A stretch of 64,000 bases of DNA from a virus, in the IMG/VR virus record IMGVR_UViG_3300042261_000588, positions 1 through 64,000 of that record. One strand, 5' to 3'. A program made the translations under genes and the position numbers. The notes beneath the pieces are model-generated. The model worked only from the letters and a program-made list of their open reading frames with translations, ran no database searches and was not told the DNA's origin. Shown one piece after another: positions 44-63,663 of the stretch; position 1 is the first letter of the stretch; every line of letters starts with the position of its first letter.

Positions 44-101
44 GCCGAACGACAAAACTCAGTTGCAAGCGAAGTGAGTCAACTGGAGCGCCTTGTTGGC
101 G
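44..101 (-). mobile_element. attC-like recombination site 1 (array A)
   Basis: Minus strand reads CGCCAAC, 5-nt spacer, GCT[C]CAGT ... ACTGAGT, 6-nt spacer, GTTCGGC. This is attC geometry with the extra base at position 4 of L''. Confidence 0.7.
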
Positions 102-124
102 CTCCGCTTTGAAAGGAAACGACG

Positions 125-310: not shown

Positions 311-582
311 GTAGCGCCGAACACCGTGCTCTCCGTTTCCGGGGAGCGAGGAGAACCGAAATGACCGCACCTGAAACGCCTGCCACTCCCCGGCATACGG
401 AGGAGCAAATGGTTCTGCACCCATATCAACGCATGTTCTTGGCCGCGCCTCCGAACGTGCAACTACGGCTCATGTACGGTCGCAAGGCAGGCCGCCAGTC
501 TTGGATGGAAATGCGTCGAATCTGCCAAGCGTATCTCGAAGAGTACATACAGAACACAAGGTTGAGGCTCCGAAATGAGTGA
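307..582 (+). CDS. hypothetical cassette ORF (alternative start 361 inside the attC loop)
   Basis: ATGA overlap with the upstream stop; GAGGAG RBS plus ATG361 lie within the palindrome loop. Confidence 0.55.
   Translation: MSSAEHRALRFRGARRTEMTAPETPATPRHTEEQMVLHPYQRMFLAAPPNVQLRLMYGRKAGRQSWMEMRRICQAYLEEYIQNTRLRLRNE
316..418 (-). mobile_element. attC-like site 2 (array A)
   Basis: + strand GCCGAAC ... GCTCTCCGT/CCGGGGAG ... CTCCCCGG/ACGGAGGAGC ... GTTCTGC; extra C at L'' position 4 on the minus strand. Confidence 0.75.
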
Positions 583-1868: not shown

Positions 1869-1965
1869 AGGATGGCAATGTTCTATGTGGAACATTGATA
1901 ATAAGGGTGCCGTAAGGCACAGAATTGGTGGCAGAAATGTCACCTTCAAGGAGGATGATAGAAGA

Positions 1966-3720
1966 ATGAGCACGTTCAAGACGGTAGCGAGGAAGAGGGC
2001 TGCGGCGGCACGTCTGCCGAGCAACGCAAAGACTGTTACGGTCAACCGGGCAGGTGGAGTGGCGTTTGAGGTCTCTGACCCGGCGTTGAAGCTCATCACC
2101 ATGACTGGTGGTTCGTTTTTCGCAGAGCCGAAGTTCTATAATGCTGCGGTCTGTGTGCCGAAGCGTGGGACTGGTGGCAAGTTCGATAAGCTGGCCGAGA
2201 GGCTGGAGATCGTGGATGGCAAGCTGAAGGGCTTTATCACCTGTGATGAGCTCCCGGAAACTGCCCGTGAGGTGATTTCTACGGCTTTGGATGTTGCACG
2301 GGGTAAGACTCCCGAGGACATTCTGGCTATCGCCAACTGGCTTCGTAACGAGATGAACATCCGTTTGACCCCGCAGGTCTTATTGGTGTTGGCCTCTCAT
2401 GTTGATGGCACGAAGCCTTTGGTACGGAAGTACGCTCCGTACATCGTGAAGCGTCCGGACGAGGTGAAGACCTGTTTGCTGGTTCATCGGTTTCTGTTCG
2501 GACTGAAGAATCTGCCGAATAGTTTGGCTACCGGTCTGTCTGATGCGGTGGGTAAGTTCGGTGAGCGTGGACTGATGAAGTATGACGACACTGGCTTCCC
2601 GACTTGGAAGGACGTGCTTTGCTGGCTTCCTCGTAAGGCTGGTTGGCCTTTGAATGGTGAGGTTGCCAAGTATTTCATCACCGGGAAGATCGATGACCCT
2701 GCAAAGACTCCGATCATCGCCGCTCGTAAGGAGTTGGCGAAGAAGACGGTGTTTGACGATGAGGCTCGTGATCTGGCGAAGAAGTCACAGGTCAATTGGG
2801 AGGTCTTGCTGTCTCAATTCGGCAAGGAGAAGAATGCGGTGTGGTCGTTCCTGATCAACAATGGTCTGGTCGGTTACATGGCTCTTCTTCGTAACCTGCG
2901 GAACATCATAGAGGCGAAGGTTTCCAAGGATGTCATTCAGAAGGTGTCGGACAAGCTCTCGAACAAGGACGAGGTTGTGAAGTCGAAGCAACTGCCGTTC
3001 AGGTTCCTGTCTGCGAAGACGGCACTGGATGGGATGTCTGGCGAATTCGATCTTGCAGACTTATCGGAGGTCGAGGCAGCTATTGAACTAGCCGCAAACG
3101 AGTCATGTTACAATATCCCGGTTATTCCGGGTGAGACCATGCTGTTTGCTGATAACTCTGGTTCAATGACGAGTAACACTCTGTCTGAGAGGTCGGCTCG
3201 TGACTGTCGTGATGCAGCGAACATGCTTGCGGGAATCGCAGCCAAGGCGTGCGAGAGGGCATATTTATTCTCTTTCGGAACGAATGTGAAGGAGGTTCGC
3301 TTCGCCAAGACGAATACCGTTATGGGCGTCTGTGAGAAGGTGAAGAAGTCTGGTAATGGGGGTGGAACGAATGGTCATTTGTGCATTGAACACCTGATCA
3401 ATTCGGGTAAGACTCCGGCACGGGTAATCATCCTGACAGACTGCCAGATGTGGGTCGATTGTCAAAATGGTGGTGGTCAGCCGTTTGCAGATGCATGGGC
3501 GAAGTACAGGAAGTCAAGTAAGGCTGCGGCTGAGACTTGGCTCCACCTCGTTCACCTTAACGGGTACGGCGATGCTCCGGTTGATGCCGGGGATCATGTC
3601 AATCAAGTTGGAGGCTTCAGTGAGAAGATTTTCTCTATGATGCTTCAAGCCGAGGGCATTGGAGGAACGGTTGCTCTGCCGACAGTGGAGCAGGTTCGTG
3701 AGAAGTGGACCGTGAAGTAG
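1966..3720 (+). CDS. rsr: Ro60/Rsr-like TROVE + vWA RNA-binding protein
   Basis: N-terminal NRAGGVAF, WLRNEMNIR, KRPDE, GYMALLRNLRNI, KSKQLPFRFLSA; MIDAS DNSGS...GGTN...ILTD; RBS AAGGAGG before ATG1966. Confidence 0.93.
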   Translation: MSTFKTVARKRAAAARLPSNAKTVTVNRAGGVAFEVSDPALKLITMTGGSFFAEPKFYNAAVCVPKRGTGGKFDKLAERLEIVDGKLKGFITCDELPETAREVISTALDVARGKTPEDILAIANWLRNEMNIRLTPQVLLVLASHVDGTKPLVRKYAPYIVKRPDEVKTCLLVHRFLFGLKNLPNSLATGLSDAVGKFGERGLMKYDDTGFPTWKDVLCWLPRKAGWPLNGEVAKYFITGKIDDPAKTPIIAARKELAKKTVFDDEARDLAKKSQVNWEVLLSQFGKEKNAVWSFLINNGLVGYMALLRNLRNIIEAKVSKDVIQKVSDKLSNKDEVVKSKQLPFRFLSAKTALDGMSGEFDLADLSEVEAAIELAANESCYNIPVIPGETMLFADNSGSMTSNTLSERSARDCRDAANMLAGIAAKACERAYLFSFGTNVKEVRFAKTNTVMGVCEKVKKSGNGGGTNGHLCIEHLINSGKTPARVIILTDCQMWVDCQNGGGQPFADAWAKYRKSSKAAAETWLHLVHLNGYGDAPVDAGDHVNQVGGFSEKIFSMMLQAEGIGGTVALPTVEQVREKWTVK

Positions 3721-3741
3721 TCTTTACGGGTAAAACAAAAA

Positions 3742-3779
3742 GGGAGTTGATACTGGAAACGGTATTGACTCCCTTTTTT
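3742..3779 (+). terminator. intrinsic terminator of rsr
   Basis: 14-bp stem, GAAA loop, T6 tail. Confidence 0.9.
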
Positions 3780-3790
3780 CTTTATAGTAA

Positions 3791-3815
3791 TAATTCTTTG
3801 ATATTTTGTATATAG
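3791..3815 (+). promoter_or_regulatory. candidate phage late promoter motif
   Basis: TAATTCTTTGATA-N7-TATAG; similar copies at 6880, 15894 and 54500. Confidence 0.55.
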
Positions 3816-3865
3816 GTGTAGGATCGCACGGTCAAAAGATTGTTCAGAGAAAGGGAGGAATGATT

Positions 3866-4102
3866 ATGGTCTACAGGAGTAATCCGACGGATAAGCAGCA
3901 GAATGAAATCGAAGTAGCAGCCAATGAGGGCGGTATTCCCGTTCTGATGGATGCCAAGACGAGGGTTATTGGAAAGGCTTTGAACACGGCGCCTTTGAAG
4001 ACCAATCATGGTTCTGCGGTTGGTGGAGAGAGAAATAATGCTGGCGTTGTGATCCCGCATTCTGATCGTCCTGGAAAATTTGAAACTCCGGGTAAGGCGT
4101 AA
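3866..4102 (+). CDS. small hypothetical protein, paralog of 54541-54804
   Basis: RBS GGGAGG; YRxNxTDKQQ N-terminus and FxxPGK C-terminus shared with the paralog. Confidence 0.85.
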   Translation: MVYRSNPTDKQQNEIEVAANEGGIPVLMDAKTRVIGKALNTAPLKTNHGSAVGGERNNAGVVIPHSDRPGKFETPGKA

Positions 4103-4114
4103 AGGAGAATCGAC

Positions 4115-4369
4115 ATGATTATTCAGCGGAATGAAGTTAAGGTCGCTCAGGAACTGGTTGCTGTTGCGAAAGAGTTACAGGCATTGGGAATAGGGCAGGA
4201 TATGGCGGCTGATCCAGATGCAGTTGGTAAGCTGGCCGATAAGCTCTTGTCTCGTCTTGGTCCTGCTAAGTCTCATCCGCTTCGGACTTACGGCATAGTA
4301 GACCTTCGTCCGACAGACACGGTTGAACAGCTCGCTCGTGCTTGGGCAACGGTGCTTCTTGCTCAATAA
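4115..4369 (+). CDS. hypothetical protein with N-terminal VAQELVAVAKEL helix
   Basis: RBS AAGGAG; ORF track. Confidence 0.8.
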   Translation: MIIQRNEVKVAQELVAVAKELQALGIGQDMAADPDAVGKLADKLLSRLGPAKSHPLRTYGIVDLRPTDTVEQLARAWATVLLAQ

Positions 4370-4417
4370 CTAAGCAATTTTAGTCTCTAAGAGTGAGTGT
4401 AAGGCGGAGGAAGTGTT

Positions 4418-4849
4418 ATGGCATGGAACGGAGCCGGATCAAGTTGGCAGTATTCTCGTTGGGTGCGTAATGCATCTAGGAATGCTAGGATTACCAATCC
4501 AACTGGATTGGAAGAACTTCTGTATCGAGTTTGTGTGGCATCATTCTATGATCCCATTGCAAACACGGGTACAAGACCTTGGTTAAAAGAAGAGTATTTT
4601 AAGAGGGCAACGGCAGCGGCTGTCGGAAGTGCATATCAGTGCAATTTGGCTACTGAGCCTATTTCGGTCATAGTCGAATTGGTTGATGTGATAGGACGAG
4701 ACCTGAAGAGGCTTCCTGTCACTGACGCCGAGAAATCGGTTTTGGACGTTCTCGGATGGATTCAGGAGAGTACTCTTGCTATTCAGAGGCGTTTAGGAAC
4801 CGGAACTAGGTTCGGCGGTGTTGGTGGTTCGATAGTCACCGTTGTATAA
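4418..4849 (+). CDS. hypothetical (probable virion) protein
   Basis: RBS GGAGG; operon context. Confidence 0.8.
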   Translation: MAWNGAGSSWQYSRWVRNASRNARITNPTGLEELLYRVCVASFYDPIANTGTRPWLKEEYFKRATAAAVGSAYQCNLATEPISVIVELVDVIGRDLKRLPVTDAEKSVLDVLGWIQESTLAIQRRLGTGTRFGGVGGSIVTVV

Positions 4850-4860
4850 GGAGAAGAATT

Positions 4861-5067
4861 ATGGCAAGTAGAGAACTTATTCAGAATTCGTGTGACGCTA
4901 TCGTTCGGACCGCTACGATCACAGAGGCTGATTGTGATGCGCTGGCAGTTTCTTTGATAGCCAGAAATGCTGAATTGGCAGACCCCACAGTATACGATGC
5001 AGCATTCGTCACGCTAAATACCATCATGGTGTCTCTCGGGGCATCAACTTATGATCTTGGCAACTAG
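4861..5067 (+). CDS. hypothetical protein
   Basis: RBS AAGGAG. Confidence 0.75.
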   Translation: MASRELIQNSCDAIVRTATITEADCDALAVSLIARNAELADPTVYDAAFVTLNTIMVSLGASTYDLGN

Positions 5068-5233
5068 TGTGATTGCACGAGATGATCAAAGAGAAGTAAA
5101 CAATCTTCCCAAGTTGCACGGAGACCAGCAACATTTTGTATTCAGACATCGTGGATCGAAAGAACCATCGGTTACTGCAGGAGAAATTGAGGTTTTGAAG
5201 TCTAAGGTTCAGAGGGCATTGGACCTGACATAA
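5051..5233 (+). CDS. hypothetical protein
   Basis: Overlaps the upstream stop and fills the gap. Confidence 0.5.
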   Translation: MILATSVIARDDQREVNNLPKLHGDQQHFVFRHRGSKEPSVTAGEIEVLKSKVQRALDLT

Positions 5234-5314
5234 GGATTTCCGGCGACGTAAAGTCATCGGGAAACGGAGTTGGATGTTCTAACTTCGGAAGTATTAATAA
5301 GTATGGAGGATGCA

Positions 5315-6277
5315 ATGGCTACTACAGTAGCGAATGAGAAGTGGATTCTGACAGTCAAGGAACTTCACTTTGGATACTGCAAGGAAACATTCCGAGCAGG
5401 AGCAGTCATCGAACTGGATGAGTCTAATGGCAGGCTCATTATTGACGGTCGGCGTTTCAATGATACCCGTGACTTGGATGTTCTGAAACGTCATTCTCAA
5501 AACTTCCCGAATAATCCTTGGGTGATTCCTTATTCCGAAGAGGCGAAAGCGGAAGTCGTTGAGGCAATTCGTCCCAAGCCGGTGAGTCAGCAGAAGATTC
5601 TTAAGCCTGATCAGCAGATGCAGGTTATCAAGTCCGATCAGGACCTCAATGAGGAAATTGACATCAGTGCAACGAAGGTGTCGAAAATCAACTCTCTGGC
5701 CAAGGAAGCTGCCAGAGCCAAGGTCAAGACTGACGGCATGGAAATCATCCGTGGCGATGAGTCAGTCGAAGATCGTCTGGAGAGTCTGAAGGGTAAGACG
5801 GATATTGGCTCCATCGCAGAGAGGGCTCGTCTGAAGGCGACTGGTTCGGTAAAGATGGCTGTCGTCAAAGATGATAATCTAGGTGCTGGTTTCGTCGGCA
5901 AAGCTCATATGTCTATGAATGCCGGACAACACCTTCCTTCCAGAGAAGAAGCTGATGCCAAGAAAGAAGACGCTAAGGCGTTGGCCGATACCCGAAAGAA
6001 GGAATCTGCAAAGCTCAGAGGCAGAGCCGTAGTCGAAGGGGATGACCAAGTAGGTGCTCGTGTCGTAGAAGGCGATGGCGAGGCTCCCGAGGACATTGGT
6101 GAGGCTTCTGAACAGTCCACTATGGTATCCCAGAACGAGGGTCTAAAGGCTGAAAACGAGGCTCTGAAGGCTCGTTTGGACCGTTTGGAGAAGATGTTGA
6201 GTGCTCAAACGGCTCCAAAGGTTGATGCACCACGTCGTGGTCGTCCGCCGAAGAGTTTGGGCGAGGAATGCCGGTAA
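5315..6277 (+). CDS. hypothetical charged protein with C-terminal coiled coil and AT-hook-like RRGRPPK
   Basis: RBS GGAGG before ATG5315. Confidence 0.8.
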   Translation: MATTVANEKWILTVKELHFGYCKETFRAGAVIELDESNGRLIIDGRRFNDTRDLDVLKRHSQNFPNNPWVIPYSEEAKAEVVEAIRPKPVSQQKILKPDQQMQVIKSDQDLNEEIDISATKVSKINSLAKEAARAKVKTDGMEIIRGDESVEDRLESLKGKTDIGSIAERARLKATGSVKMAVVKDDNLGAGFVGKAHMSMNAGQHLPSREEADAKKEDAKALADTRKKESAKLRGRAVVEGDDQVGARVVEGDGEAPEDIGEASEQSTMVSQNEGLKAENEALKARLDRLEKMLSAQTAPKVDAPRRGRPPKSLGEECR

Positions 6278-6294
6278 TCACGGGGGAGTAATTC

Positions 6295-6588
6295 ATGCAG
6301 TTTCCATTTCAATGCAAGAAATGCGGGAAACGGTTTGATGGGGAGTACCCGATTGGTAAAGCACCACGGGTTACTCCCTGTCCTTCATGTAAAGGCACGG
6401 CAAACCGTATCTATGAAGGGCTGAGTCTCTCCGTAAAGGTAGGCGGAGATTTTATTCGTTCGTCTAAATTTGGAGAAGAGATGAAGGCTAAAAACTCGAA
6501 AGCCGCTTATAGACAAAAGGGTCGAAAGGCTCCAGTCCGCCTGGCAGCCTACGATCACGGTAACGGCGATGTTCGAGAAGTAAAATGA
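6295..6588 (+). CDS. FmdB-like zinc-ribbon protein
   Basis: FQCKKCGKRF...CPSC motif. Confidence 0.7.
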   Translation: MQFPFQCKKCGKRFDGEYPIGKAPRVTPCPSCKGTANRIYEGLSLSVKVGGDFIRSSKFGEEMKAKNSKAAYRQKGRKAPVRLAAYDHGNGDVREVK

Positions 6589-6601
6589 AGGAGAAGGCTG
6601 C

Positions 6602-6874
6602 ATGAATGAAGTAAATAGTTCTCCTGCGACTATCAGATTGTATCGTACATCCGATCTGTATTTCGCAGCATTCCTCTGCAGCCTCGATTTCCAGTTGAAG
6701 ACAACAGAAACTTCCAATACGCCGGATGGAGGCAAGAAGGTTGTCTTCGTGTTTGCTCTTCCTGACCAGGACCTTGCTAGGACAAAGGCAATGTATTTTG
6801 GAGGAACAGGAACAGTCAAGGCTCGTGTCTTCGTAGATCATTTGAGAAGCCTCAAGCAAATTTGCTACTGCTGA
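6602..6874 (+). CDS. DUF5659-like small phage protein
   Basis: YRTSDLYFAAFL...KVVFVF motif. Confidence 0.6.
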   Translation: MNEVNSSPATIRLYRTSDLYFAAFLCSLDFQLKTTETSNTPDGGKKVVFVFALPDQDLARTKAMYFGGTGTVKARVFVDHLRSLKQICYC

Positions 6875-6879
6875 TGTAA

Positions 6880-6904
6880 TAAATATCTGATACTTGGCAC
6901 ATAA
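6880..6904 (+). promoter_or_regulatory. candidate phage late promoter motif
   Basis: TAAATATCTGATA-N7-CATAA. Confidence 0.4.
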
Positions 6905-6916
6905 ATAGAGGTGCCA

Positions 6917-7329
6917 GTGATAGACAGATTAGACAGCATGGCTGCGAAAGTAGCCTTTCAGTTTTTTCGCAAAAGGGCAGCAAGAAGATTTGATCTTCGA
7001 TGCTGTCTTTTCTAATTTAAGGGAGAAGGATAGAGATTACAAGGATGGTCTTGAACAATCAGCCCGTGATTCTTTAAATAAAATGCTGATAAAAGACCTT
7101 ATTGGTAGAGGGCATGATGTCGTATCCGTCGAAATCAGCTTAGGGAAGTATCGTGGATCAAGGTTCGTTACTTCGGCAAAGGTAGCGGTTCGGTTGAAGG
7201 ACATGAAGGATGCAAAGATTTTGGTAAAGGAACTTCAACGGTATCATAGGCCGTTACTCATTGAAGTCATTTGAGGATGGAGTGGCGGTTTACAACACCA
7301 AAGCGGAGGGTAGCCGAAATGAAAGCTGA
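6917..7329 (+). pseudogene. frameshifted hypothetical gene whose 3' end is the cassette insertion site
   Basis: GAGG RBS + GTG6917 (MIDRLDSMAAKVAF); continuity needs +1 shifts at TTTTTTC (~6962-6968) and CTTC (~7233-7236); the final frame reads ...DGVAVYN at the AAC junction. Confidence 0.5.
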
Positions 7330-7380
7330 CGATTGCAAGACAACCACGGGTGAGGCTTACCCTCCCGAGCCTTGTTCGGC
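7290..7380 (-). mobile_element. attC-like site 4 (array B)
   Basis: TTACAAC...CGGAGGGTAGCC / GGCTTACCCTCCCG...GTTCGGC; two extrahelical bases; ATG7319 in the loop. Confidence 0.75.
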
Positions 7381-7600
7381 CTCATGGCGTTTCCGTGTGG
7401 CCTGCGTAGGTTCGCACATTGCCAAGAAATACGGTCTGCTCTGCGTTGACGAAACGCACGGTGGTCACGACCAGCATTACGGTTGGCCTATGCGGTCGAT
7501 AGGGCTGGAGTGGTCATGGCGGCGGAATACGTGGTTTGCAGGGTGGGTATTAAGGCCGAACACGGTGCTGAGGGGCGACGGCCCCGGAAAGGACGCATGA
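7319..7600 (+). CDS. hypothetical cassette ORF
   Basis: GGAGG RBS in the attC arm; stop within the next attC loop; GC-rich. Confidence 0.65.
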   Translation: MKADDCKTTTGEAYPPEPCSASWRFRVACVGSHIAKKYGLLCVDETHGGHDQHYGWPMRSIGLEWSWRRNTWFAGWVLRPNTVLRGDGPGKDA

Positions 7601-7653
7601 CTACACCAAACACGGGCGCCGGGGCCGTCGTACCCTCCGGCACATTGTTGGAC
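7555..7653 (-). mobile_element. attC-like site 5 (array B)
   Basis: GCCGAAC-5 nt-GCTGAGGGGCGACGGCCCCGG / CCGGGGCCGTCGTACCCTCCGGC-5 nt-GTTGGAC. Confidence 0.8.
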
Positions 7654-7830
7654 GATCTTGAAATCGCGCTCGACAAGATATTCTCCCGTAAACGCGAGAG
7701 ACTCATCACTGGCGGTCAAGTCGTCGGCATGAAAATGTGGCGCACTGAGTTCTCCGGACAGGAATACGGCGACGTGCTCGACAAGGTGAACGCGCTGCGT
7801 GACTCCATAGCGGCCAACATCAGACGATAA
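7597..7830 (+). CDS. hypothetical cassette ORF
   Basis: AAAGGA RBS and ATGA overlap inside the attC loop; uses the backbone stop after the AAC junction at 7818. Confidence 0.65.
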   Translation: MTTPNTGAGAVVPSGTLLDDLEIALDKIFSRKRERLITGGQVVGMKMWRTEFSGQEYGDVLDKVNALRDSIAANIRR

Positions 7831-7980
7831 GAAGGTTCAGATGGCGTATAGCAAGGCGTGGCAAATAACGCCTTTGGTTGGCGACGAGTTTCATACAGAT
7901 GGGCTAATAAATCACGATGGTTATGATTCTGGAATTTCACTTCGAGAAGTGAAGTGATGGAGAGAGGAAGGATGGTCGCA

Positions 7981-8724
7981 ATGAATAGTCGAGAGGATAT
8001 GATTGCAGACAGAGTTGCTCTGGAAGTTTCAGGGAGTGGACTCCCATTGATGGAAGATGATGAGTGGAAAGCTCTGAAACATCAAAAAGACGACAATTTC
8101 CAAAAGACAGAGCGAGATAAAGTTGAGAAACGCCGTATGATTCAGAAGAGGTTGCGTAGAAGAGAGTCATCTGAAATCCTGAAAGTTGCCAAGAGTCTTC
8201 TAGCCAAGAGAGAAATCCAAGACATTTTGAGATTGGCGAAGTCGGTGTTGTCTGGAACGGACACTCGGACAATTCGTGGGACAGGCTGGACAGAGCAGGA
8301 AGCCCTGAAGAATGCCTTGGCAGAGGATGAGCGGGAGTATGGGCACGGGGAAGGCTATGGGGGTGGATCAGGATCATTGAGAGCGGTTATTCGGAAGAAA
8401 GTGATTCGGGAACCGAAGAAGGCAAAGCGGGTGACAATCGAGAAGTTTCCGATACGGAAGGGGCCTGTTGAGAAACGATTTGTCTTGGAACGTCGGTGGG
8501 GTTTTGATCGTGATATGCCGATTGACCGTGATCCGAAGTATCGAGAAAGGTATGAGACGCAGGGACAGGTTCTTGCGGCTGCAAAGGAATTGGCACTTCA
8601 GTACGGCACGGAGTTGGTGATTACGCTGGAAGCCTTCTGTGTTGGGGATACCAAGCTGGCTATTGTGAAGCCGGAAGAGGCACAGACTGGCGAGTGGATG
8701 TTCGAGTGCGATTTCAGGAGTTGA
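7981..8724 (+). CDS. hypothetical protein with repeated ILK/RxAKS helices
   Basis: RBS GAGGAAGG; ORF track. Confidence 0.75.
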   Translation: MNSREDMIADRVALEVSGSGLPLMEDDEWKALKHQKDDNFQKTERDKVEKRRMIQKRLRRRESSEILKVAKSLLAKREIQDILRLAKSVLSGTDTRTIRGTGWTEQEALKNALAEDEREYGHGEGYGGGSGSLRAVIRKKVIREPKKAKRVTIEKFPIRKGPVEKRFVLERRWGFDRDMPIDRDPKYRERYETQGQVLAAAKELALQYGTELVITLEAFCVGDTKLAIVKPEEAQTGEWMFECDFRS

Positions 8725-9975: not shown

Positions 9976-10266
9976 ATGGATTTTGGAAGAGAGGTAGAGG
10001 AGATCGGCAATCTGATGATGTCGGCTGCTTTGATTCAAGAGATTCGCCGTGAGGTTGCCACGGTGATGCGTGATGGTTTTATCGTATCTGATGGGATACA
10101 TCATCCTCTTGGAGGAGGCTATGATGTAGTCGTGCGTTGTGGATCAGAAGATCGTCTAGATGTATTTCGCAGGATAAGAGGGAAGATACAGGACGTGCAA
10201 GTGGAGAAGATTGCAGACGGTGTGCTTGGGATCAAGTCGGCTCGAAGGATGAGAGGAAGGCTATGA
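9976..10266 (+). CDS. hypothetical protein
   Basis: RBS AAGGA. Confidence 0.7.
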   Translation: MDFGREVEEIGNLMMSAALIQEIRREVATVMRDGFIVSDGIHHPLGGGYDVVVRCGSEDRLDVFRRIRGKIQDVQVEKIADGVLGIKSARRMRGRL

Positions 10267-12668
10267 GATTCTCATTTAAAGCATTGGTCATAACCTCAGT
10301 ATTGGCTTTTGTGTGGCCTGTATTGGCCGCTGATGTGACGAACAGTTTTGGAACCGTATTGGCTCGAAAAGTGTTGATTGGAACCGTCTCTAATCATTTT
10401 GAGGTAACTCAATCAATTACCAATGGTCTTGCCTCGACAAATTATGTGATTGAGGCTACCAATCCAATCCCTAGCTGGATAACCTCTGCGATTAACGCCG
10501 CGACGAACGGAATCCCGCACGGCTCGCTGTCTGGCATAGAAGGCGCGGGGACGCTGCACGTTTCGGCGGCAGAGACGAGCAAGGTTGCGACCGCATGGCA
10601 GAATCCATCAAGCGCAACCAACTGGACGTGGACCAAGACAGATACGGAAGTGACGCTGACAGGATATACCGGTCCGAATGAGGTGGTGATTCCTGATATG
10701 TTGGATGGGTTGCCGGTGACTGGGTTCGGGAATATATTTGAACTCAACGCTGTAATCACGCGTGTAACTGGTGGTGGGAATATCAGGTCAATCTCATTCA
10801 GAGCATTTACTTGGTGTTCTGAGTTATTGTGGATTGCGCTCCCCAATGTTACGACAATTGGAGACCAAGCATTTCAAAGCTGCATAAAGCTGGCGGATGC
10901 AAAATTCCCTAACGTCACGACCATTGGAGGCTATGCGTTTGGCTATTGCGGGGATGTAAGATTTGACCCTATGCCTAATGTCACTTCGGTTGGGACGTAT
11001 GCGTTCTATCAGTGCCAGGACATGGGATCAATGTACTTCTCAGGGAACGCACCAACAGAAGCACTTAATGTTTTCGATTTAGCTAATCCCAGCATTACCA
11101 ACTACGTCACCAACCCGACCGCCACTGGATGGGGTGCGACGTGGAACGGCAGACCGGTTGTGCGGTTGCCTGTCTACGCCAACCAATTTATCGGGGGAGG
11201 CGCAGGAGTGTCCAACGTGCCTATTGCTGGCGTGACCGGGCTGGCCGACGCGCTGGCGGGCAAGGTGTCCACCAACAACTTCCTCGGTTTGGTCAACGGG
11301 CTGTCTGTGCGCGATCCGGTCTTGTCGCTGGCGGTTGATGCAACAGGCCCGTATGCGACCGTTACGCCGTCGCCAGCCGGCCAGATTGAATACTGGTTCG
11401 GTCAATCAATTGTGCAGTACGGCACCAGCGTGGTGGTGCGGCTGACGGCGGGGACTACGAACACTCCTGCGCTCAACTATGTGTGCGCCTTGCCGAACGG
11501 GACGATTACGAATTACACGAGCTATCCGTACTTGACCAGCGGCACGGCGGCGGATGCGCGCGCAATGATGTTCGAGATTTTCCTGATGGACACCAACAGC
11601 ATCGTGGCTGGCAATGGCTACGCGATTAGGAGCTGGACGGAGAATGTGGAGAACCGGCGCGGGCTGGGGCGCGTGTCGTGGATCGGGGAGCGGGTGCGAC
11701 GGCTTCCGGCGATATGGGAGAGCGGCGTCCAGGCTTCTGTCTCGACGACCAACTCCAGCGTGACGGACGCTTACCTCACGACGACCGATGGCGTGGGTTG
11801 GCAAATGCACAGCCACACGATTCCAGCCAACACGAATCGGACAATGATGTGGGTGCTCAACTCGGCGTCGGGGTTCCGGGCAATCACGAATCTGAACGCT
11901 CTGACGGCACTGCCGAGCGGCGCGGCGATGTTCGGGTCGGTCGGGGATTGTCACGCGATCAATGTGTTTGCCTTTGTGGAGAGCGGAATCACGCCGAAAT
12001 CGACGCGCCTGATGCTCAATCTTTCGAGCGCGAGTTACACGGCTGGTCCTGCTTCGACTCGGCTGGCCAACTGTATCGCGGACGCCAGCAGTTACGATAA
12101 CACAGGCGTACCGGTTTACATGCAAGGGATGACAATCCGCATTGCCCGCATCGTGGTGCGGAGTGATGCGGCCGGCCGGACGTACTGGATTTATGACCGG
12201 CGCGGGCAGCCGTTGGGGACGGCGGGCGGCGGGGCGAGCGGTAGCGGGGAGAGCGATCCGATATTTGCGGCATGGCTTGCGAGCGCGGCGGAATCCATGC
12301 CGACGACCGAGCGCGTGTACACGCCGACGATCACGCAGGCGACGGCGGCGGGGATCACGAACACGATTGCGGTTGTGCCGACCAACAGAATCTATCGGCT
12401 GACCGTGACCAATTTGACCAGCGTGCTGGCCTTCGACCTGTCCGGGCTCAACATCGGCACGCAGGTAGCGGATTGGTCAACCATGATTACGGTCGCTCAT
12501 ACGAACGTGAGTTTCGCGTACCCGGCGACGAATGCGACGTTGCGTTACTTGTCCACGCCGACGGTCTCGACGACGCGCTCTAACCAACTGCTGCGGGCGA
12601 ATTGGCAGGCATACATCTGCAGCTTGGGCAAGACGAACATCATCTGCAATCAATGGGACTCGTTCTAA
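10263..12668 (+). CDS. signal-peptide-bearing fibre/adhesin-like protein with BspA-type LRRs
   Basis: MRFSFKALVITSVLAFVWPVLA signal; LTGYTGPNEVVIPDMLDGLPVT and repeated PNVTTIGxxAF; Thr/Asn-rich. Confidence 0.75.
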   Translation: MRFSFKALVITSVLAFVWPVLAADVTNSFGTVLARKVLIGTVSNHFEVTQSITNGLASTNYVIEATNPIPSWITSAINAATNGIPHGSLSGIEGAGTLHVSAAETSKVATAWQNPSSATNWTWTKTDTEVTLTGYTGPNEVVIPDMLDGLPVTGFGNIFELNAVITRVTGGGNIRSISFRAFTWCSELLWIALPNVTTIGDQAFQSCIKLADAKFPNVTTIGGYAFGYCGDVRFDPMPNVTSVGTYAFYQCQDMGSMYFSGNAPTEALNVFDLANPSITNYVTNPTATGWGATWNGRPVVRLPVYANQFIGGGAGVSNVPIAGVTGLADALAGKVSTNNFLGLVNGLSVRDPVLSLAVDATGPYATVTPSPAGQIEYWFGQSIVQYGTSVVVRLTAGTTNTPALNYVCALPNGTITNYTSYPYLTSGTAADARAMMFEIFLMDTNSIVAGNGYAIRSWTENVENRRGLGRVSWIGERVRRLPAIWESGVQASVSTTNSSVTDAYLTTTDGVGWQMHSHTIPANTNRTMMWVLNSASGFRAITNLNALTALPSGAAMFGSVGDCHAINVFAFVESGITPKSTRLMLNLSSASYTAGPASTRLANCIADASSYDNTGVPVYMQGMTIRIARIVVRSDAAGRTYWIYDRRGQPLGTAGGGASGSGESDPIFAAWLASAAESMPTTERVYTPTITQATAAGITNTIAVVPTNRIYRLTVTNLTSVLAFDLSGLNIGTQVADWSTMITVAHTNVSFAYPATNATLRYLSTPTVSTTRSNQLLRANWQAYICSLGKTNIICNQWDSF

Positions 12669-12669
12669 C

Positions 12670-13716
12670 ATGAGAACACTCACACTGACACTTTGCGCGA
12701 TGTCGCTGGCGGCGGCGGCGGTCTGGGCGGGGATCCCGAGCAGGATTGACCCGCTTGGGAAGCTGGGTGGCGACACCCATTTCACAATCACCTTTGTTTC
12801 CGGTACTCCGCCAACGACGCTCTCGCTGGGCGTCGGCGAGGCATACGCGGGACCGGCCACACCGTCGCAGGCTCTATACGACGCGGGCAATGGCGTGTGG
12901 ACGGCGTACACGAGCAACACGATTACGATGCGCGGGCGTTACATCAAGTTCCGTGGCGACTGGAGAAATGCAAGCGGTGCATATCAAAACATGTTCCACA
13001 CCTCGCTCACGAGTCCGACCTACACATGCGAGTTTTCGGGGACTCTCGACTACGCGGCTACGGCGGTGAATGCGTACAGAGCGATTTTTTCCAGCAACCC
13101 GCGGGTTACTGCTATGCGGACAAATCCGTTTCGGAAAATTACCGGAACGCCGACGGCAGGTATGTTTTTAGCATCCTTCATCAACATGTCTGGCTTGGTC
13201 GGGCCACTGCCTGACGGATTCATGGATACTTCGGCACTAACCGGGCCACCAGGGTCAGGCATGTTAGCTTACACCTGCTACGGCATGGTAAACGTGACAG
13301 GCCCACTGCCCGCCGGATTTATGGACACGTCGAGGCTAACCGGGCCGACAGCGGCGAACATGTTTAACAACGCCTGCAACAATATGTCCAACGTGACCGG
13401 CCCACTGCCTGACGGATTTTTGAGCGCCATCAATATGACCGGACCGCTAGCGGTGGGTGCGTACTACTACGCCTGCAACGGAATGGCAAAAATAACGTCA
13501 GGAGATTTCCAGATTCCCACGAACATCTCAATGACTGGCGGAAACATCGTTGGATCGTTGGACAGTGCATGGAGAAACATGCCACTGTGGGGCGGTCAGG
13601 TTTTTTGGGGCACGAATGTGATCCATACTGTGCTGACGCCAACGAATGATATCAATACGTTTGCCTCATCAACGAACGTGCCGGGATACGCCACGATGAG
13701 TGCGAACTGGAAGTAA
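12670..13716 (+). CDS. signal-peptide-bearing repeat (LRR-like solenoid) protein
   Basis: N-terminal signal ending AVWA; three ~40-aa repeats NxTGPLPxGFMDTSxLTGP. Confidence 0.75.
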   Translation: MRTLTLTLCAMSLAAAAVWAGIPSRIDPLGKLGGDTHFTITFVSGTPPTTLSLGVGEAYAGPATPSQALYDAGNGVWTAYTSNTITMRGRYIKFRGDWRNASGAYQNMFHTSLTSPTYTCEFSGTLDYAATAVNAYRAIFSSNPRVTAMRTNPFRKITGTPTAGMFLASFINMSGLVGPLPDGFMDTSALTGPPGSGMLAYTCYGMVNVTGPLPAGFMDTSRLTGPTAANMFNNACNNMSNVTGPLPDGFLSAINMTGPLAVGAYYYACNGMAKITSGDFQIPTNISMTGGNIVGSLDSAWRNMPLWGGQVFWGTNVIHTVLTPTNDINTFASSTNVPGYATMSANWK

Positions 13717-13731
13717 ATGGAGGACTCAATA

Positions 13732-14184
13732 ATGTACAGACTGAACGCAGACGGGACAATCACGGACTCGGCCAGCATACCGGAGAATCAATGCGAGTAT
13801 GGTGGGTTGGTGCGCGGGAACTTCTCCGCATTCATGGCGAGGCAACCGGTGGCGGAGCGGCAGGCCGAGGGATGGTACGAGTACCTCATCGAGGGCGACG
13901 TTGACCAGCCGACCGTTGACCCGATCACGGACGCGCTCATCGTGCCGCGCCCGGTTCCTGCCGCGCCCATGGTGGAGGCCGATCCGCTTATTCCATATGC
14001 CGATATGATTTCCAAATTCTCTGCTTTATGGGCAAGTCTTAATATTGGACCAGTGCCTTCTGATTGGTCTACGGCGATGGGGTTAGTGTCAGAACAACCA
14101 ATTGAGATACAAGTAAAATTATTAACGTATCGTGTTGCACTATCTCCTGTCTGGGATGTATTGTTAGAAAGGACTAATCAATGA
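13732..14184 (+). CDS. hypothetical protein (fibre assembly-like position)
   Basis: RBS GGAGG before ATG13732. Confidence 0.65.
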   Translation: MYRLNADGTITDSASIPENQCEYGGLVRGNFSAFMARQPVAERQAEGWYEYLIEGDVDQPTVDPITDALIVPRPVPAAPMVEADPLIPYADMISKFSALWASLNIGPVPSDWSTAMGLVSEQPIEIQVKLLTYRVALSPVWDVLLERTNQ

Positions 14185-36516: not shown

Positions 36517-39360
36517 GTGGCTTTTTTGAGTGTTGATTCAACAAATTCTTTGGTCGTATATGACGCTTACAATCATAGAGCCGTCATTGGCGATCTTGGT
36601 GGATACTGGGATGCCGATAAAAAGGCATGGGTAATCGTATTCACAATTGCCAATCTAGAAGGACTCTTGGATGCCATTCCTGATATTTCTGTGTCTGAAG
36701 ACCTGTCGAATAAGGTCAAGGAGCAGATGGAGAAGGAGGCTAAGCTCGAAAAACTAAGGGCTATGTCGAAGCAGGATGTTCCAGTGAGTCTTCGCATTCC
36801 TGGTATGAAGTTGCCATTGTATAACTATCAGAGGCTTGGGGTTATGTATGCGGCAACGAATCGGGTTGGACTGCTTCTAGCGGACGAAATGGGACTTGGC
36901 AAAGCCGAAGTTGTTGATAATCAAGTATTTACAACTACAGGACGCCGCAGGATAGGGAGCTTGAAGATTGGAGATAATGTAATAGGGAAAGACGGAAAAC
37001 CCCATTGTGTTGTTGGCGTTTATCCACAGGGGATGCAAGATATTTATCGGGTTTGGTTCAATGATGGGTTTTACCTAGATGTTGGACCAGAACACCTGTG
37101 GGAAGTAAGGTCAAACAACCAACACAACAAAAAAAGAACATCGAAGGGTGTTGTGTTATCGATGAGTCAACTTCTTGACAAGAATGGAGTTTCAAATAGG
37201 GTTGGCGAGGGACACAACAGAGATAAGGTATATGAGTTCAAGACATATTACAAGAAGTCTAACGGCGACAACAGTTGGGTAATACCAATGGTTGATGTTA
37301 TTGATTTTGAAAAAAAAGAAGTTTTGATGGACTCGTATCTTCTGGGAGTGTGGCTTGGAGATGGGCATATCTGTAAGAACGGGCATGTAATATTGAGAAT
37401 GCTAAAGACGGACTTGGAAGATATGCCTATTGGCGGGAAGACCCTATCCGGTAAGCGACCACATGTGCAATCTGTTTCGTTTGACATGTATAAAAAAGAG
37501 TTGGTCAATCTTGGTTTAAACGGAAAGAGAGCTTGGGAAAAGTTCATACCTGTCGACTATAAATACAATTCTGAAGAAGTAAGACTTGGAATCATTCAGG
37601 GGTTGATGGATACAAATGGTCATGCGGCAGATGGTGAGACCGAGTTTTCGACCAGTTCCAAGCAGTTGTGTGACGATGTGGTTGAGATTGTTCAAACGCT
37701 TGGCGGTATTGCAAGAGTGAGGACGAAAATACCGACATATTGGCATAAGGGAGTAAAGAAGACGGGAAGGACATCGTATAGGGTCAACATCAAGTTGCCT
37801 TCTGGTGTTGTTCCGTTTCGTCTATCTAGAAAGATTGCGGACTATGACATGTGCCGTAAGTATGCCCCTGAGCGATATATTTGTAATATTGAAAAACTCG
37901 CAGAAAAGAAAGAAACGGTTTGCATCTCAGTCGATGCGCCTGATAATCTTTATGTCACGGAACATTGTATTGTCACTCATAATACCCTCCAGGCTATCGG
38001 AACATCTCTATTCCTGAAGGCTTATGCTGGAGCCACAAAGGCACTCATTGTCACTCCGGCTTCACTCAAATTCAACTGGCCGTTGGAGATAGAAAAGTTT
38101 ACGGATGAGAAGTATGTAGTAATTGATGGAACACCCGAGGAGCGTGTCGCTCAATGGCTTCGTGAGGATGTGTTCTTTTACGTGGTCAACTTCGAGTTGT
38201 TGTTGGAGGACTTGTTCGGAGGTAGAAAGTTTAGAGAAAAGAAGGGTGAGTCAGACGAGGATAAGGAGAAAAGGCTTGCTAGGCATGAGAAGATTTCTGT
38301 TAAGGCTAAACAGAGGAGAGGAATACTAGACAGAGTTCGTAATAGAGTATGGGATATTATTGCAGTTGATGAGGCGCAGGCGATCCGACATCATTCTTCG
38401 AGCAGGACTAGGAATTTGAAGGAGTTGAAGGCCAAGTGTAGGATGGCTCTTACGGGAACTCCGATGGATGGAAGGCTTGAGGAGTTGCACAGTCTGATGC
38501 AGTTCGTGGCTCCTGGATTGCTCATGTCAAAGACTAGGTTCTTTCAACGGTATGTCGAGACCGACTTCTGGGGCAGGGTTACGGGATACAAGTGCATCGG
38601 CGAAGTATCACAGAAGATTCAGCCGTTCTTTCTTAGAAGGCTCAAGAAAGATGTGTTGAAGGATTTGCCTGACAAGGTTTATCACAACCGTATTGTTTCG
38701 ATGGATGCCAGTGAGCATAAAATTTATAAGTCTATTGCAGAGCAGGGGCATGAGGCGACAGAAGACGCTCTTGCCGTTGTTGCATTGATCAGGTGTAAAC
38801 AGTTCTGCAATTTGCCTAAGATGGTTGATCCTTCATGTACGACGAGTTCCAAGCTGGATGAATTCAAAGATGTAGTCGACGAGGTTGTGCTTCAAAATGG
38901 ACACAAGGCATTGATATTCAGCCAGTATAAGGAGATGCTGGATGTCATTGTGTCGGAATTGGAAAAGATGGGTATCAAGTATCTCAGAATTGACGGGGAT
39001 ACGCCTACAATACAGCGTGCTTCTATGCAGAAGCAGTTTAATGAGGATAAAGCTATTGACGTGATGGTTGGAACTGAGGCAATGTCTACTGGATTGAACT
39101 TCCAGTCTGCGGATTATGTCATCAACTATGATGATAACTGGTCTCCATCTATTATGGCTCAGCGTGAAGACAGAGCGCATCGGAATGGGCAGAGGAATGT
39201 GGTGACTATCGTGAACTTTATATGCCAAGACACAATCGAAGAGAGAATTCGTGGAGTAATCTATGCAAAGAGTCGAATGTCATCACAAGTTCTTGGTGAC
39301 GAGACTGAAGAACATATCCTGAAAAGATTGGGTCCTAAAGATTTGGCCAAACTATTGTGA
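36517..39360 (+). CDS. SNF2-family helicase with intein
   Basis: LYNYQ, LLADEMGLGK|T, DEAQ, LTGTP, LIFSQY, GLNFQ, QREDRAHRNGQ. Confidence 0.93.
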   Translation: MAFLSVDSTNSLVVYDAYNHRAVIGDLGGYWDADKKAWVIVFTIANLEGLLDAIPDISVSEDLSNKVKEQMEKEAKLEKLRAMSKQDVPVSLRIPGMKLPLYNYQRLGVMYAATNRVGLLLADEMGLGKAEVVDNQVFTTTGRRRIGSLKIGDNVIGKDGKPHCVVGVYPQGMQDIYRVWFNDGFYLDVGPEHLWEVRSNNQHNKKRTSKGVVLSMSQLLDKNGVSNRVGEGHNRDKVYEFKTYYKKSNGDNSWVIPMVDVIDFEKKEVLMDSYLLGVWLGDGHICKNGHVILRMLKTDLEDMPIGGKTLSGKRPHVQSVSFDMYKKELVNLGLNGKRAWEKFIPVDYKYNSEEVRLGIIQGLMDTNGHAADGETEFSTSSKQLCDDVVEIVQTLGGIARVRTKIPTYWHKGVKKTGRTSYRVNIKLPSGVVPFRLSRKIADYDMCRKYAPERYICNIEKLAEKKETVCISVDAPDNLYVTEHCIVTHNTLQAIGTSLFLKAYAGATKALIVTPASLKFNWPLEIEKFTDEKYVVIDGTPEERVAQWLREDVFFYVVNFELLLEDLFGGRKFREKKGESDEDKEKRLARHEKISVKAKQRRGILDRVRNRVWDIIAVDEAQAIRHHSSSRTRNLKELKAKCRMALTGTPMDGRLEELHSLMQFVAPGLLMSKTRFFQRYVETDFWGRVTGYKCIGEVSQKIQPFFLRRLKKDVLKDLPDKVYHNRIVSMDASEHKIYKSIAEQGHEATEDALAVVALIRCKQFCNLPKMVDPSCTTSSKLDEFKDVVDEVVLQNGHKALIFSQYKEMLDVIVSELEKMGIKYLRIDGDTPTIQRASMQKQFNEDKAIDVMVGTEAMSTGLNFQSADYVINYDDNWSPSIMAQREDRAHRNGQRNVVTIVNFICQDTIEERIRGVIYAKSRMSSQVLGDETEEHILKRLGPKDLAKLL
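36904..37983 (+). mobile_element. class 3 intein (360 aa) with LAGLIDADG domain, inserted in Walker A
   Basis: Starts with Ala after GK, ends THN|T; W in EHLW, C in VCISV, T in VTHN; LLGVWLGDG and IIQGLMDTNG motifs. Confidence 0.9.
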
Positions 39361-50963: not shown

Positions 50964-51166
50964 CCTCGGTTGAGGATGGTGCGGCTCCGGTTAAAACGGT
51001 GTCCGCACCAGTTTCTGATAAGGCTGCGGTTAAGACTCAAGTCGAATCTCCAATCAGTGTCAGTCCATCCGATTATGTCTGTTTCGGGACTATCGACAAG
51101 AGTCACCCGGAGTGTCAGAAGTGTCAGAACAACACACTGTGTGAAGAAGCGACGAAGTAAAATTGC

Positions 51167-51196
51167 GGGAGGCGGTTGGGCAACCGACCGTCTCCC
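51167..51196 (+). promoter_or_regulatory. GC-rich GCAA-tetraloop hairpin between SSB and recA
   Basis: GGGAGGCGGTTGG-GCAA-CCGACCGTCTCCC; weak U tail. Confidence 0.6.
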
Positions 51197-51213
51197 GTTC
51201 TTGGGAGGATTTT

Positions 51214-52353: not shown

Positions 52354-52404
52354 CTCTAGGATTCAATTGTTTAGCGTATAAAACATTGGAATGTAAGGAG
52401 AGAG

Positions 52405-54525: not shown

Positions 54526-54540
54526 TAGGAGGAGAAACTT

Positions 54541-54804: not shown

Positions 54805-54811
54805 AAATTTT

Positions 54812-62327: not shown

Positions 62328-62861
62328 ATGAGATGTCTTAATTGCGGAAAAGAGTTGTCGACGGGTGATGCTCCGAACAGTGCATTTTGCCGACAATGCC
62401 AAGATATTGGCACTTCGAAGCATTCTATGTCATTTGTAGCCGGGTGTGCAGGATGTGCAAGAGAATACGGTGGAGGGGCGATATGTTCACATTGCACACG
62501 AAATCCGATACACAAAGACATGTGGACCCAGAGATGTCGAGGTTGGATTTCATACGACTTTCACACGACACCACCCAGCGTGACGACTGTCCGCGAATTG
62601 GCATCACCGACTGGTTCGGGCTGCTACGCGCCAGAGCATCACGGACGCTGCTGCTGCAACTGCCGCTACCATCTTCGCGACCACTCGCACCCGCTCACGG
62701 ACGGCGGACGAATCACCGCGCAGCGCGGGTGGTTATGCAGCCCGCCTGAACTCGATGCAGCTTTCAGCGGTTGGTCCGAACATGGAATGTGCGAAATGCA
62801 CGATAGCCCGAATCACGAACGGGGCTGCTCACCCTCGGGCGGCCAAGGAGAAACGCCATGA
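62328..62861 (+). CDS. Cys-rich chimeric ORF (backbone N-terminus fused to cassette-derived C-terminus)
   Basis: Multiple CxxC motifs; GC shift near 62560 and half attC-like site ending GTTCGGG at 62620. Confidence 0.5.
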   Translation: MRCLNCGKELSTGDAPNSAFCRQCQDIGTSKHSMSFVAGCAGCAREYGGGAICSHCTRNPIHKDMWTQRCRGWISYDFHTTPPSVTTVRELASPTGSGCYAPEHHGRCCCNCRYHLRDHSHPLTDGGRITAQRGWLCSPPELDAAFSGWSEHGMCEMHDSPNHERGCSPSGGQGETP

Positions 62862-62913
62862 CAAAACCGAAACGCCAGCGGGCCTCCCGTAGCGGTGAAG
62901 CGGCTTGTTCGGC
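62814..62913 (-). mobile_element. attC-like site (array C)
   Basis: CACGAAC-6 nt-GCTCACC ... GGTGAAGC-5 nt-GTTCGGC; AAGGAG RBS and ATGA junction in the loop. Confidence 0.75.
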
Positions 62914-63118
62914 AGATACCATCCGCATGAACTGGTTGGAAACGGTATCGTGCAAAATATACGGTGTCGCGGTTCCGAGTGGCGACATTACCGTTCTGGA
63001 ATGGGATACGGATGGACACACCGAACGCACAGCCGAGGCCGCTACGCTTCGAGACGCGATTGACGCCGCAATGCTGATGCCGAACATGAGGCTTGAGGAA
63101 CGGAGCGCAGCGGAATGA
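62858..63118 (+). CDS. hypothetical cassette ORF
   Basis: DTIRMNWLE...TLRDAIDAAM; start and stop both lie inside attC loops. Confidence 0.7.
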   Translation: MTKPKRQRASRSGEAACSADTIRMNWLETVSCKIYGVAVPSGDITVLEWDTDGHTERTAEAATLRDAIDAAMLMPNMRLEERSAAE

Positions 63119-63145
63119 CGAATAGCCTCGACTCTCTGGTTGGTC
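63079..63145 (-). mobile_element. attC-like site (array C)
   Basis: Minus strand GACCAAC-5 nt-AGT[C]GAGG ... CCTCAAG-6 nt-GTTCGGC. Confidence 0.65.
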
Positions 63146-63663
63146 TTTCCGGGTTCCGCACGATTGTGGCTGACCCGCCGTGGCCGATCAAGTGGCAGCG
63201 CAACGCCGGGATCGGGAAGCGAGAACTTGACTACCCGACAATGCCGATAGCAGAAATGTGCCTGCTTCCTGTGCGCGAGTTGGCCGACAAGGACGGTTGC
63301 ACGCTGTTTTTGTGGACGACGAACGCCTTTCTTCAGGAGGGGCTAGGCATCGTGAAGGCGTGGGGGTTCACCTATGAAATGCTCTATACATGGTGCAAGA
63401 ACAACGGCATGGGCGGACATCCACGATGCGCCACAGAACACATGATTATCGCCGTACGAGGAACACCAAAGCGTGGAGACAGACACGACCCCATGACGTT
63501 GAACTGGGGTGTGTTTCCGCTTGGCAAACACAGCGAGAAGCCTGAAGCCGTGCAAGACATGATCGAACGGATTACAGAGGGGCCACGGCTCGAACTGTTC
63601 GCCCGTCGCGTCAGGCCGAACTGGGTTTGCTGGGGTAACGAGGTAGAGGCTAACCATGTATGA
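63115..63663 (+). CDS. MT-A70 family N6-adenine methyltransferase (cassette cargo)
   Basis: IVADPPW, YPTM, LFLWTT, WGF, HSEKP, LELFAR, WGNE. Confidence 0.92.
   Translation: MTNSLDSLVGLSGFRTIVADPPWPIKWQRNAGIGKRELDYPTMPIAEMCLLPVRELADKDGCTLFLWTTNAFLQEGLGIVKAWGFTYEMLYTWCKNNGMGGHPRCATEHMIIAVRGTPKRGDRHDPMTLNWGVFPLGKHSEKPEAVQDMIERITEGPRLELFARRVRPNWVCWGNEVEANHV

Follow-up and report, generated by a model that had tools for sequence, protein, structure and literature searches.

A 522-bp G+C-rich block at positions 7297-7818 of the phage record IMGVR_UViG_3300042261_000588 is probably a pair of integron-type gene cassettes, inserted at an AAC/GTT secondary site within a conserved phage gene. In integron terms, it amounts to a two-cassette attC cluster without an integron integrase (CALIN). 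The record (G0 hereafter) comprises 143,854 bp, is estimated to be 67% complete, and carries every gene on the plus strand at an overall G+C content of 47%; the window analyzed here is its first 64 kb, whose numbering it shares. Since three related phages keep the gene uninterrupted, the locus appears to be a clear example, from nature, of a phage capturing cassettes at a minimal site of three bases.

The three relatives were found through the interrupted gene and a conserved neighbour. They correspond to contigs L002, L003, and L017 (G1, G2, and G3, respectively) and share 78%, 63%, and a lower amino acid identity with G0, G3 being a relative of 64% G+C. Genome-wide, G0 is collinear with G1 and G2 (blastn, about 72% identity). 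All three relatives have an intact 130-aa gene, ending in ...VAVYNIR* in G1, ...AEYNIR* in G2, and ...ASYNIR* in G3, as anticipated by the first-pass annotation of this DNA, which had predicted that uninterrupted homologues end in YN[IV]R. The blastn match to G1 over the host gene stops exactly at 7297. With the block removed, the MAFFT alignment of G0 runs through the gene end of both G1 and G2, the block-free end TAC AAC / ATC AGA CGA TAA facing TAC AAC ATT AGG TAG in G1 and TAT AAT ATC AGG TGA in G2. The same annotation had placed the breakpoints at the AAC triplets, and this placement withstands the comparison, given the uninterrupted ends of the relatives and the alignment through the block-free junction.

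Removal of the block yields ...EDGVAVYN-IRR* in frame 1, with the insertion point two codons ahead of the host gene stop. On the minus strand, the empty site has the sequence GAT-GTT-GTA. Integron integrases (IntI) insert cassettes at 5'-GWT-3' genome sites, which has been proposed as the origin of two-cassette CALINs (bioRxiv 10.1101/2022.09.11.507474). The features expected of such an attG-type insertion, namely a GWT target, a single crossover, and a reconstructable empty site, are all found here. A search for the empty junction had also been suggested; the exact string GTTTACAACATCAGACGATAA has no match in IMG/VR, and it is the uninterrupted gene in the three relatives which reveals the empty site.

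The block is of foreign origin. Its G+C content is about 58% versus about 43% in the flanks, with a scan giving 0.57-0.65 within the block and 0.35-0.48 on either side, and the family of sites which it carries is absent from G1, G2, and G3. The junctions read TTTAC-AAC (7289-7296) and AAC-ATCAGACGATAA (7816-7830). The cassette ends match each other: GTTCGGCCT (7374-7382) and AGGCCGAAC (7553-7561) are reverse complements at 9/9 positions, and GTTGGACG (7647-7654) pairs with CGGCCAAC (7811-7818) at 7/8. The block, its junctions, and these self-matches had been described in the first-pass annotation with coordinates and strings that all agree with the sequence. No match was found among the INPHARED phages (blastn) or, for region 6800-8000 at E ≤ 10, in Rfam, which has no attC model, and a scan for promoters and terminators stayed at chance level. 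The Rfam result was also taken to exclude a group I or II intron or another structured RNA, and an intein was rejected because the host frame meets a stop 10 codons into the block.

The bottom strand of an attC site comprises an R' box (5'-RYYYAAC), 5-6 nt of central spacer, an L'' in which position 16 is an extrahelical base, and an R'' box (5'-GTTRRRY) (PMC5027507), with cleavage between the A and C of AAC (PMC5027507; PMC2811028). The two sites of the block, S1 and S2, have a corresponding layout on the coding strand: an ...AAC box, a 6-nt spacer, a 7-nt L', a variable loop, an 8-nt L'' made of four pairs, one unpaired base, and three further pairs, a 5-nt spacer, and a GTT box. The boxes are near-canonical, GCCGAAC/GTTGGAC in S2 and (TTAC)AAC/GTTCGGC in S1, base 4 of the 5' box being often G, not Y. 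The R box, the 5-6 nt spacer, the L box, and the extrahelical base in L'' of attC geometry are present. The L pairs of S1 number 6/7 in the window and 7/7 in two other contigs, L027 and L028, whose S1-type site is the one that matches the strict geometry pattern given below.

S1 and S2 belong to a site family with other members in G0 at 44, 316, 62814, 63079, 77995, 78293, 80488, about 129.6 kb, 137306, 137573, 141681, and 142201. The consensus is GCCGAAC or GGCCAAC with TTGTTCGGC or TTGTTGGGC, and loop length ranges between about 20 and about 45 nt. Family boxes recur on the plus strand only; TTGTTCGGC is found four times there and never on the minus strand, against 0.48 occurrences expected. 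A strict geometry pattern (AAC-6-L'7...L''4+1+3-5-GTT), searched on both strands and compared with shuffles, gave eight matches on the plus strand, of which one is an alternative register inside S2, and one on the minus strand, for a shuffle mean of 0.9. S2 is the second-best AAC...GTT palindrome genome-wide, and none of 200 shuffles is as good as its DNA fold (-29.9 kcal/mol, z = -3.96). Judged by its boxes and layout, the family matches the published bottom-strand geometry and is assigned to the attC type.

Both backbone junctions coincide with the AA|C of the first and last attC. Each cassette would consist of an attC hairpin followed by a small gene which runs to the next ...AAC box (Table 1). 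S1 comprises, in order, TTACAAC, the 6-nt spacer, L' GCGGAGG, the loop, L'' CCTC-C-CGA, the 5-nt spacer GCCTT, and the 3' box GTTCGGC. Its loop holds a Shine-Dalgarno (SD) sequence, GGAGGG, and the ATG of open reading frame (ORF) A, and CTTGTTCGGCC comes after the hairpin. The loop of S2 likewise holds an SD sequence, GGAAAGGA, and the ATG of ORF B, which overlaps the TGA of ORF A (ATGA), the 3' arm of this site exceeding the 5' arm by 2 nt. The starts of S1 and S2 are 265 bp apart and a lone box follows, so that the arrangement of at least two close attC sites with no integrase nearby, which defines a CALIN, is present.

Neither ORF belongs to a Pfam family. ORF B shows a clear coding signal (G+C of 0.60, 0.35, and 0.69 at codon positions 1, 2, and 3). 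AlphaFold2 models are poor for both, with a predicted local distance difference test (pLDDT) score of 38 for ORF A and 59 for ORF B, and the ESM Atlas gave no usable match for ORF B.

Table 1. Features of the interrupted gene, the inserted block, and related sites in the window.
Feature	Positions	Strand	Description
Host (backbone) gene, 5' part	6911..7296	+	Conserved 130-aa phage protein; from the G1/G2 alignment
Target triplet AAC	7294..7296	+	Asn of ...VYN, with GTT on the minus strand; left member of the 3-base repeat around the insert; direct reading
Putative attC site S1, hybrid	7290..7380	+	Backbone TTACAAC in place of the 5' box; geometry read from the sequence
Putative cassette 1, 265 bp	7297..7561	+	S1 hairpin, ORF A body, and 5' box GCCGAAC; bounded by AAC triplets
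ORF A, 93 aa	7319..7600	+	Start in the S1 loop; CCG AAC read as ...PN
Putative attC site S2	7555..7653	+	GCCGAAC ... CGACGGCCCCGG / CCGGGGCCGTCG ... GTTGGAC; 99-nt imperfect palindrome
Putative cassette 2, 257 bp	7562..7818	+	S2 hairpin, ORF B body, and 5' box GGCCAAC
ORF B, 77 aa	7597..7830	+	Two predicted helices; ends ...AAN, then host IRR*
Lone 5' box GGCCAAC	7812..7818	+	Closes the insert, no hairpin after it; direct reading
Host gene, displaced 3' end	7819..7830	+	ATC AGA CGA TAA; aligns with the G1 and G2 ends
Family site	44-101	+	Further member of the family
Family site resembling S2	316..418	+	Opening GCCGAACACCGTGCT like that of S2; SD and ATG in the loop
Second cluster	62814..63621	+	Sites 62814-62913 and 63079-63145; lone box 63615-63621

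Given the bottom-strand geometry of the sites, the coding strand appears to be the attC bottom strand, i.e. the strand which an integron integrase would cut and the reverse of the situation in classical cassettes. With this orientation, the ribosome site and the start codon sit in the hairpin loop. This also applies to the second cluster, whose cargo is an 86-aa ORF and an MT-A70 DNA methyltransferase (63115-63663) with ATGA overlaps in the loops, and the methyltransferase has no other in-frame start ahead of its DPPW motif. In 13 of the 15 boxes, AAC is an Asn codon of a long upstream frame (binomial estimate, about 3e-5), and the stop lies 4-25 codons past the AAC box, in the next hairpin or in the backbone. 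The cassette genes seem to have no stop of their own and to borrow one from the next hairpin or, for ORF B, from the host IRR*. The host AAC is in frame as well, so the host frame ends at the built-in stop of S1 (...VYN-TKAEGSRNES*), and the same TKAEGSRNES* tail closes an unrelated upstream gene in L028. The reading of the block as cassettes, already proposed in the first-pass annotation, is supported; what had been missed there is the bottom-strand coding and the broken state of the host gene, described below.

Other clusters of G0 are built in a similar way. Those at 62.8 and 80.5 kb both have a degenerate first 5' box and a lone last 5' box, ending at 63615-63621 and 80692-80698 of the genome, and the 78-kb cluster, compared at its start, opens alike (GCAGAAC). 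The 62.3-64.3 kb region is absent from G3. A 198-bp unit ending in GCCGAAC (genome 80498-80698) may interrupt a small gene of the backbone (...ICGKLIAK / SEWEDTGIVWAFQ...), whose two parts share one frame, and could represent a second in-gene insertion. At window positions 85-110 and genome positions 137132-137157, TTGTT is looped by short perfect GC hairpins (GGAGCGCC-TTGTT-GGCGCTCC and GGAACGCC-TTGTT-GGGCGTTCC) which look like terminators overlapping the 3' box. A hairpin-encoded leader peptide is common to G0 at about 129570-129665 (MTETNTTRAAGSSA...) and to contig L026 at 606-706 (MTDTNATRAAGSSA...), and may mark another shared attC subfamily.

Parts of the block are found in other metagenome contigs with other neighbours, consistent with the claim of the first-pass annotation that the elements are mobile. 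L027 and L028 contain a complete S1-type attC (TTTCCGAAC...GTTCGGCC) with its own CCGAAC box, 95.5% identical over 7294-7381. The stretch similar to the window runs from AAC to the end of GTTCGGCC and has unrelated flanks on either side. S1 would therefore be a normal attC whose 5' box has been replaced by backbone at the cleavage triplet. A homologue of cassette 1 in L026 covers 7371-7582, and cassette 2 is matched over 7587-7819 by L019 and from 7645 by L020. Relatives of ORF A (P0010, 60%; P0011, 65%; and one in L036) have different hairpins ahead of them and are conserved to ...PN, diverging beyond. ORF B has HMMER matches to P0002 (74%), P0003 (64%), P0005, and P0006. Its relatives in L019, L020, and L021 (74%, 64%, and 43%) are conserved to ...N, and the similarity ends at the ...CAAC box, after which comes an in-frame but unrelated tail, a cassette with a methyltransferase, or a further family site. 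The more distant L022 relative (45%) lies outside a cassette context and has no terminal N.

L021, L026, and L036 are G+C-rich arrays of family sites. Within search reach, no relative of ORF A or ORF B was found in 185,579 species genomes, the JGI metagenomes gave one short array only (L036), and an exact-protein look-up of ORF B and of the 255/256-aa downstream gene gave no other contigs. Taken at face value, the cassette pool looks phage-borne or uncultured.

The host gene itself is broken in G0. Compared with both G1 and G2, it has two 1-nt insertions, near 6963-6968 (in a T run) and near 7249-7253, which cause its reading frame to run 2, then 0, then 1. By tblastn, about 55 other conserved genes are single-frame and full-length, and the host gene alone is partial (query residues 16-112 in one frame). 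Two Logan contigs from independent runs, L024 (SRR35144456; G0 positions 2319-7651) and L025 (SRR27007106; 6699-7651), match G0 at 100% identity over these intervals and cover both frameshifts and the left junction. Assembly indel errors are ruled out by the intact genes and by the identity of these contigs. Because both frameshifts are confirmed in two independent runs, the host gene, which has no Pfam family, is best described as a pseudogene in the G0 lineage. It presumably lost its function through the insertion and decayed afterwards. The expectation that removing the block restores an in-frame gene end holds for the end itself (...VAVYN-IRR* in frame 1), but the gene annotated from 6917 is not one open frame.

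The neighbourhood of the host gene resembles a hot spot for selfish insertions, in which the relatives hold extra genes, absent from the window, around the same small conserved genes. These (L002, 2144-2899 and 3224-3862; L003, 1886-2842, 3207-3851, and 4947-5693) look like free-standing endonucleases of HNH or GIY-YIG type, by motifs read by eye. In the window, a 3.9-kb block of about 60% G+C at 10263-14181, with three genes of 843, 394, and 155 aa in the ORF list, separates two backbone genes which are only 43 bp apart in G1 and G2. The G1 homologue (51096-54839) of window 36517-39360 has about 360 extra residues (551-911), which may be an intein or an inserted domain, and the G3 homologue of 57981-61940 has about 1.15 kb extra inside. 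Upstream of the host gene, the window carries a transfer-messenger RNA (tmRNA, tag AHLQNARVSTTSG*), a tRNA-Met, and a 611-aa TROVE/Ro60-like protein at 1079-1486, 1746-1822, and 1885-3720, respectively, the last being called from the Pfam match listed for the identical contig L024.

In the proposed mechanism, a cassette circle and a double-stranded GTT site undergo a single crossover on the bottom strand, at AA|C, the bottom-strand cleavage point of integron integrases. Such a crossover would leave a hybrid first site, made of TTACAAC and the cassette hairpin, and a lone GGCCAAC at the far end. It would be carried out by an IntI-type tyrosine recombinase provided by the host, by a co-infecting element, or by the missing third of the phage. 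We infer this enzyme, as the searches for recombinase families gave no match in the 144 kb of the record. The earlier proposal of integration at a minimal GTT secondary site finds support in the layout and the junctions. The combination of intI, attI, and a cassette promoter (Pc) which defines a complete integron is not seen in the 143,854 bp of the record.

Several observations weigh against this interpretation. Neither a Y1 transposase nor a tyrosine, IntI, or serine recombinase turned up in the 143,854-bp, approximately 67% complete record (for PF00589 and TIGR02249, no match at E ≤ 1), and an identity of three bases is also expected from illegitimate recombination. The extrahelical base is mostly A or C, not the usual G, which is found in two sites. 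A second extrahelical base (T23/24) is clear in one site only, 137573-137679, where G16, T24, and a stem of 6 bp were read by eye; in S2, an A/T bulge follows a stem of 5 bp, and the other sites have none. S1 alone folds no better than shuffles (z = 0.46), and in L019 conservation does not extend to the 5' hairpin arm. The right junction is present only in the IMG/VR contig, a single assembly, and the two Logan contigs break off precisely at 7651, within the S2 3' box (GTTGG|AC). This stop, common to L024 and L025 from different runs, suggests a graph branch, in which case the sequence after S2 would vary in natural populations. Finally, similarity also breaks at the 3' (GTT) box, an S1-type attC preceding a different gene in L027 and L028. 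Either several cassettes have an attC subfamily in common, as is seen in Vibrio arrays, or recombination takes place at both boxes.

A bolder reading is possible, though we lean against it: phages may keep their own pool of backwards integron cassettes, in which the attC hairpin serves as translation punctuation (start in the loop, in-frame AAC closing the coding part proper to the cassette, stop borrowed), movable by a phage-associated or novel recombinase at both boxes. If so, cassettes could drop into any in-frame Asn codon near a gene end and be expressed at once, and the exchange would be the work of a recombinase acting at both hairpin boxes rather than of accidental IntI action from the host.

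The main rival to an integrase-mediated insertion is illegitimate, microhomology-driven recombination, in which template switching during replication or co-infection would have copied a piece of a foreign phage array, with AAC as a 3-bp microhomology and no site-specific enzyme. This route has been raised for phage CALINs by Qi et al. (PMC9892861). It agrees with the negative search for a recombinase in the genome and with the position of the host gene at the edge of a hypervariable stretch, where relatives have different genes and HNH or GIY-YIG endonucleases, and the G+C-rich block at 10263-14181 did enter between two genes. Nevertheless, we consider it improbable, as the canonical cleavage triplets of the first and last attC coincide to the nucleotide with the two junctions, the left 6-nt spacer and L' box are intact, the 80.5-kb cluster has the same ending, and AAC is in frame at 13/15 boxes.

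A hairpin-specific single-strand transposase of IS200/IS605 or REP-associated tyrosine transposase (RAYT) type, inserting 3' of a short target, would fit the hairpin-bounded, strand-specific elements and the TTAC (the IS608 target) directly 5' of AAC. Such an origin is very doubtful, since no Y1 transposase (PF01797) was found in the 144 kb of the genome, the hairpins have attC geometry with AAC/GTT boxes rather than that of subterminal transposon hairpins, the units form arrays with shared boxes, and no TTAC precedes the other clusters. Equally hard to credit are an ancestral block lost precisely in each of the three relatives, even if precise IntI excision of genome-inserted cassettes is known (bioRxiv 10.1101/2022.09.11.507474), given the intact YNIR* end in all three at 78%, 63%, and lower identity and the foreign composition, and an assembly chimera, to which the single source of the right junction and the break of the Logan contigs at 7651 would point, given that the left junction is identical in two independent runs and that a chimera would take two joins, both at AAC and both in frame.

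If the block was inserted by an IntI-type recombinase, an insertion that arose naturally in a phage and whose empty site is kept by relatives would be the missing field evidence for cassette acquisition via three-base sites, and phages would acquire cassettes by an insertion route, beyond carrying fragments of bacterial integrons. The layout would also explain how a promoterless cassette gets expressed wherever it lands in a phage operon, and loss of the target gene may be a cost of cassette capture. The locus supplies concrete sites and primers for asking which integrase acts on phage DNA during infection.

Among known systems, the PeSL-flanked modules of T4-type phages, which carry an early promoter and a stem-loop (promoter early stem-loop, PeSL), are thought to recombine by homology. 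Like the cassettes described here, they are small accessory modules of phage hyperplastic regions, bounded by stem-loops and swapped between phages, but they are not known to have AAC/GTT boxes or attC geometry. Classical arrays, whether in class 1 mobile integrons or in the sedentary chromosomal integrons of Vibrio, share with the block the R'/R'' AAC/GTT boxes, the 5-6 nt central spacer, the extrahelical L base, the variable loop, the mutually complementary cassette ends, and attC subfamilies common to unrelated cassettes. They differ in that the block has no intI, attI, or Pc and has its genes on the opposite strand, with the attC ahead of the gene, supplying the ribosome site and start, and with no own stop, AAC being a codon.

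Closer to our case, virulent phages have been found to carry CALINs whose cargo includes methyltransferases (Qi 2023, PMC9892861). As here, the cassettes are small, bounded by attC sites, and located in a phage genome without a neighbouring integrase; DNA methyltransferase recurs among their cargo, comparable to the MT-A70 cassette at 63115-63663, and GTTRRRY-like boundary motifs are discussed. Our case differs from these by an in-gene insert with an empty site in three relatives and by sites known from sequence alone, and also by bottom-strand genes starting in the loops, whereas the TJE1 and PH101 cassettes are only called co-directional, like those of typical bacterial arrays, with the strand unstated. 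The attG pathway (Loot et al., bioRxiv 10.1101/2022.09.11.507474), together with the secondary-site events known before it, has in common with the block the three-base target (GTT, minus strand), the single AA|C crossover, the two-cassette CALIN product far from any integron, and insertion within a coding sequence. It was described from experiments in E. coli with IntI1-3 and a census of bacterial genomes, whereas the present event is a natural one in a phage. What is new here is the verified empty site of an in-gene insertion, together with a near-identical, complete copy of the hybrid site elsewhere.

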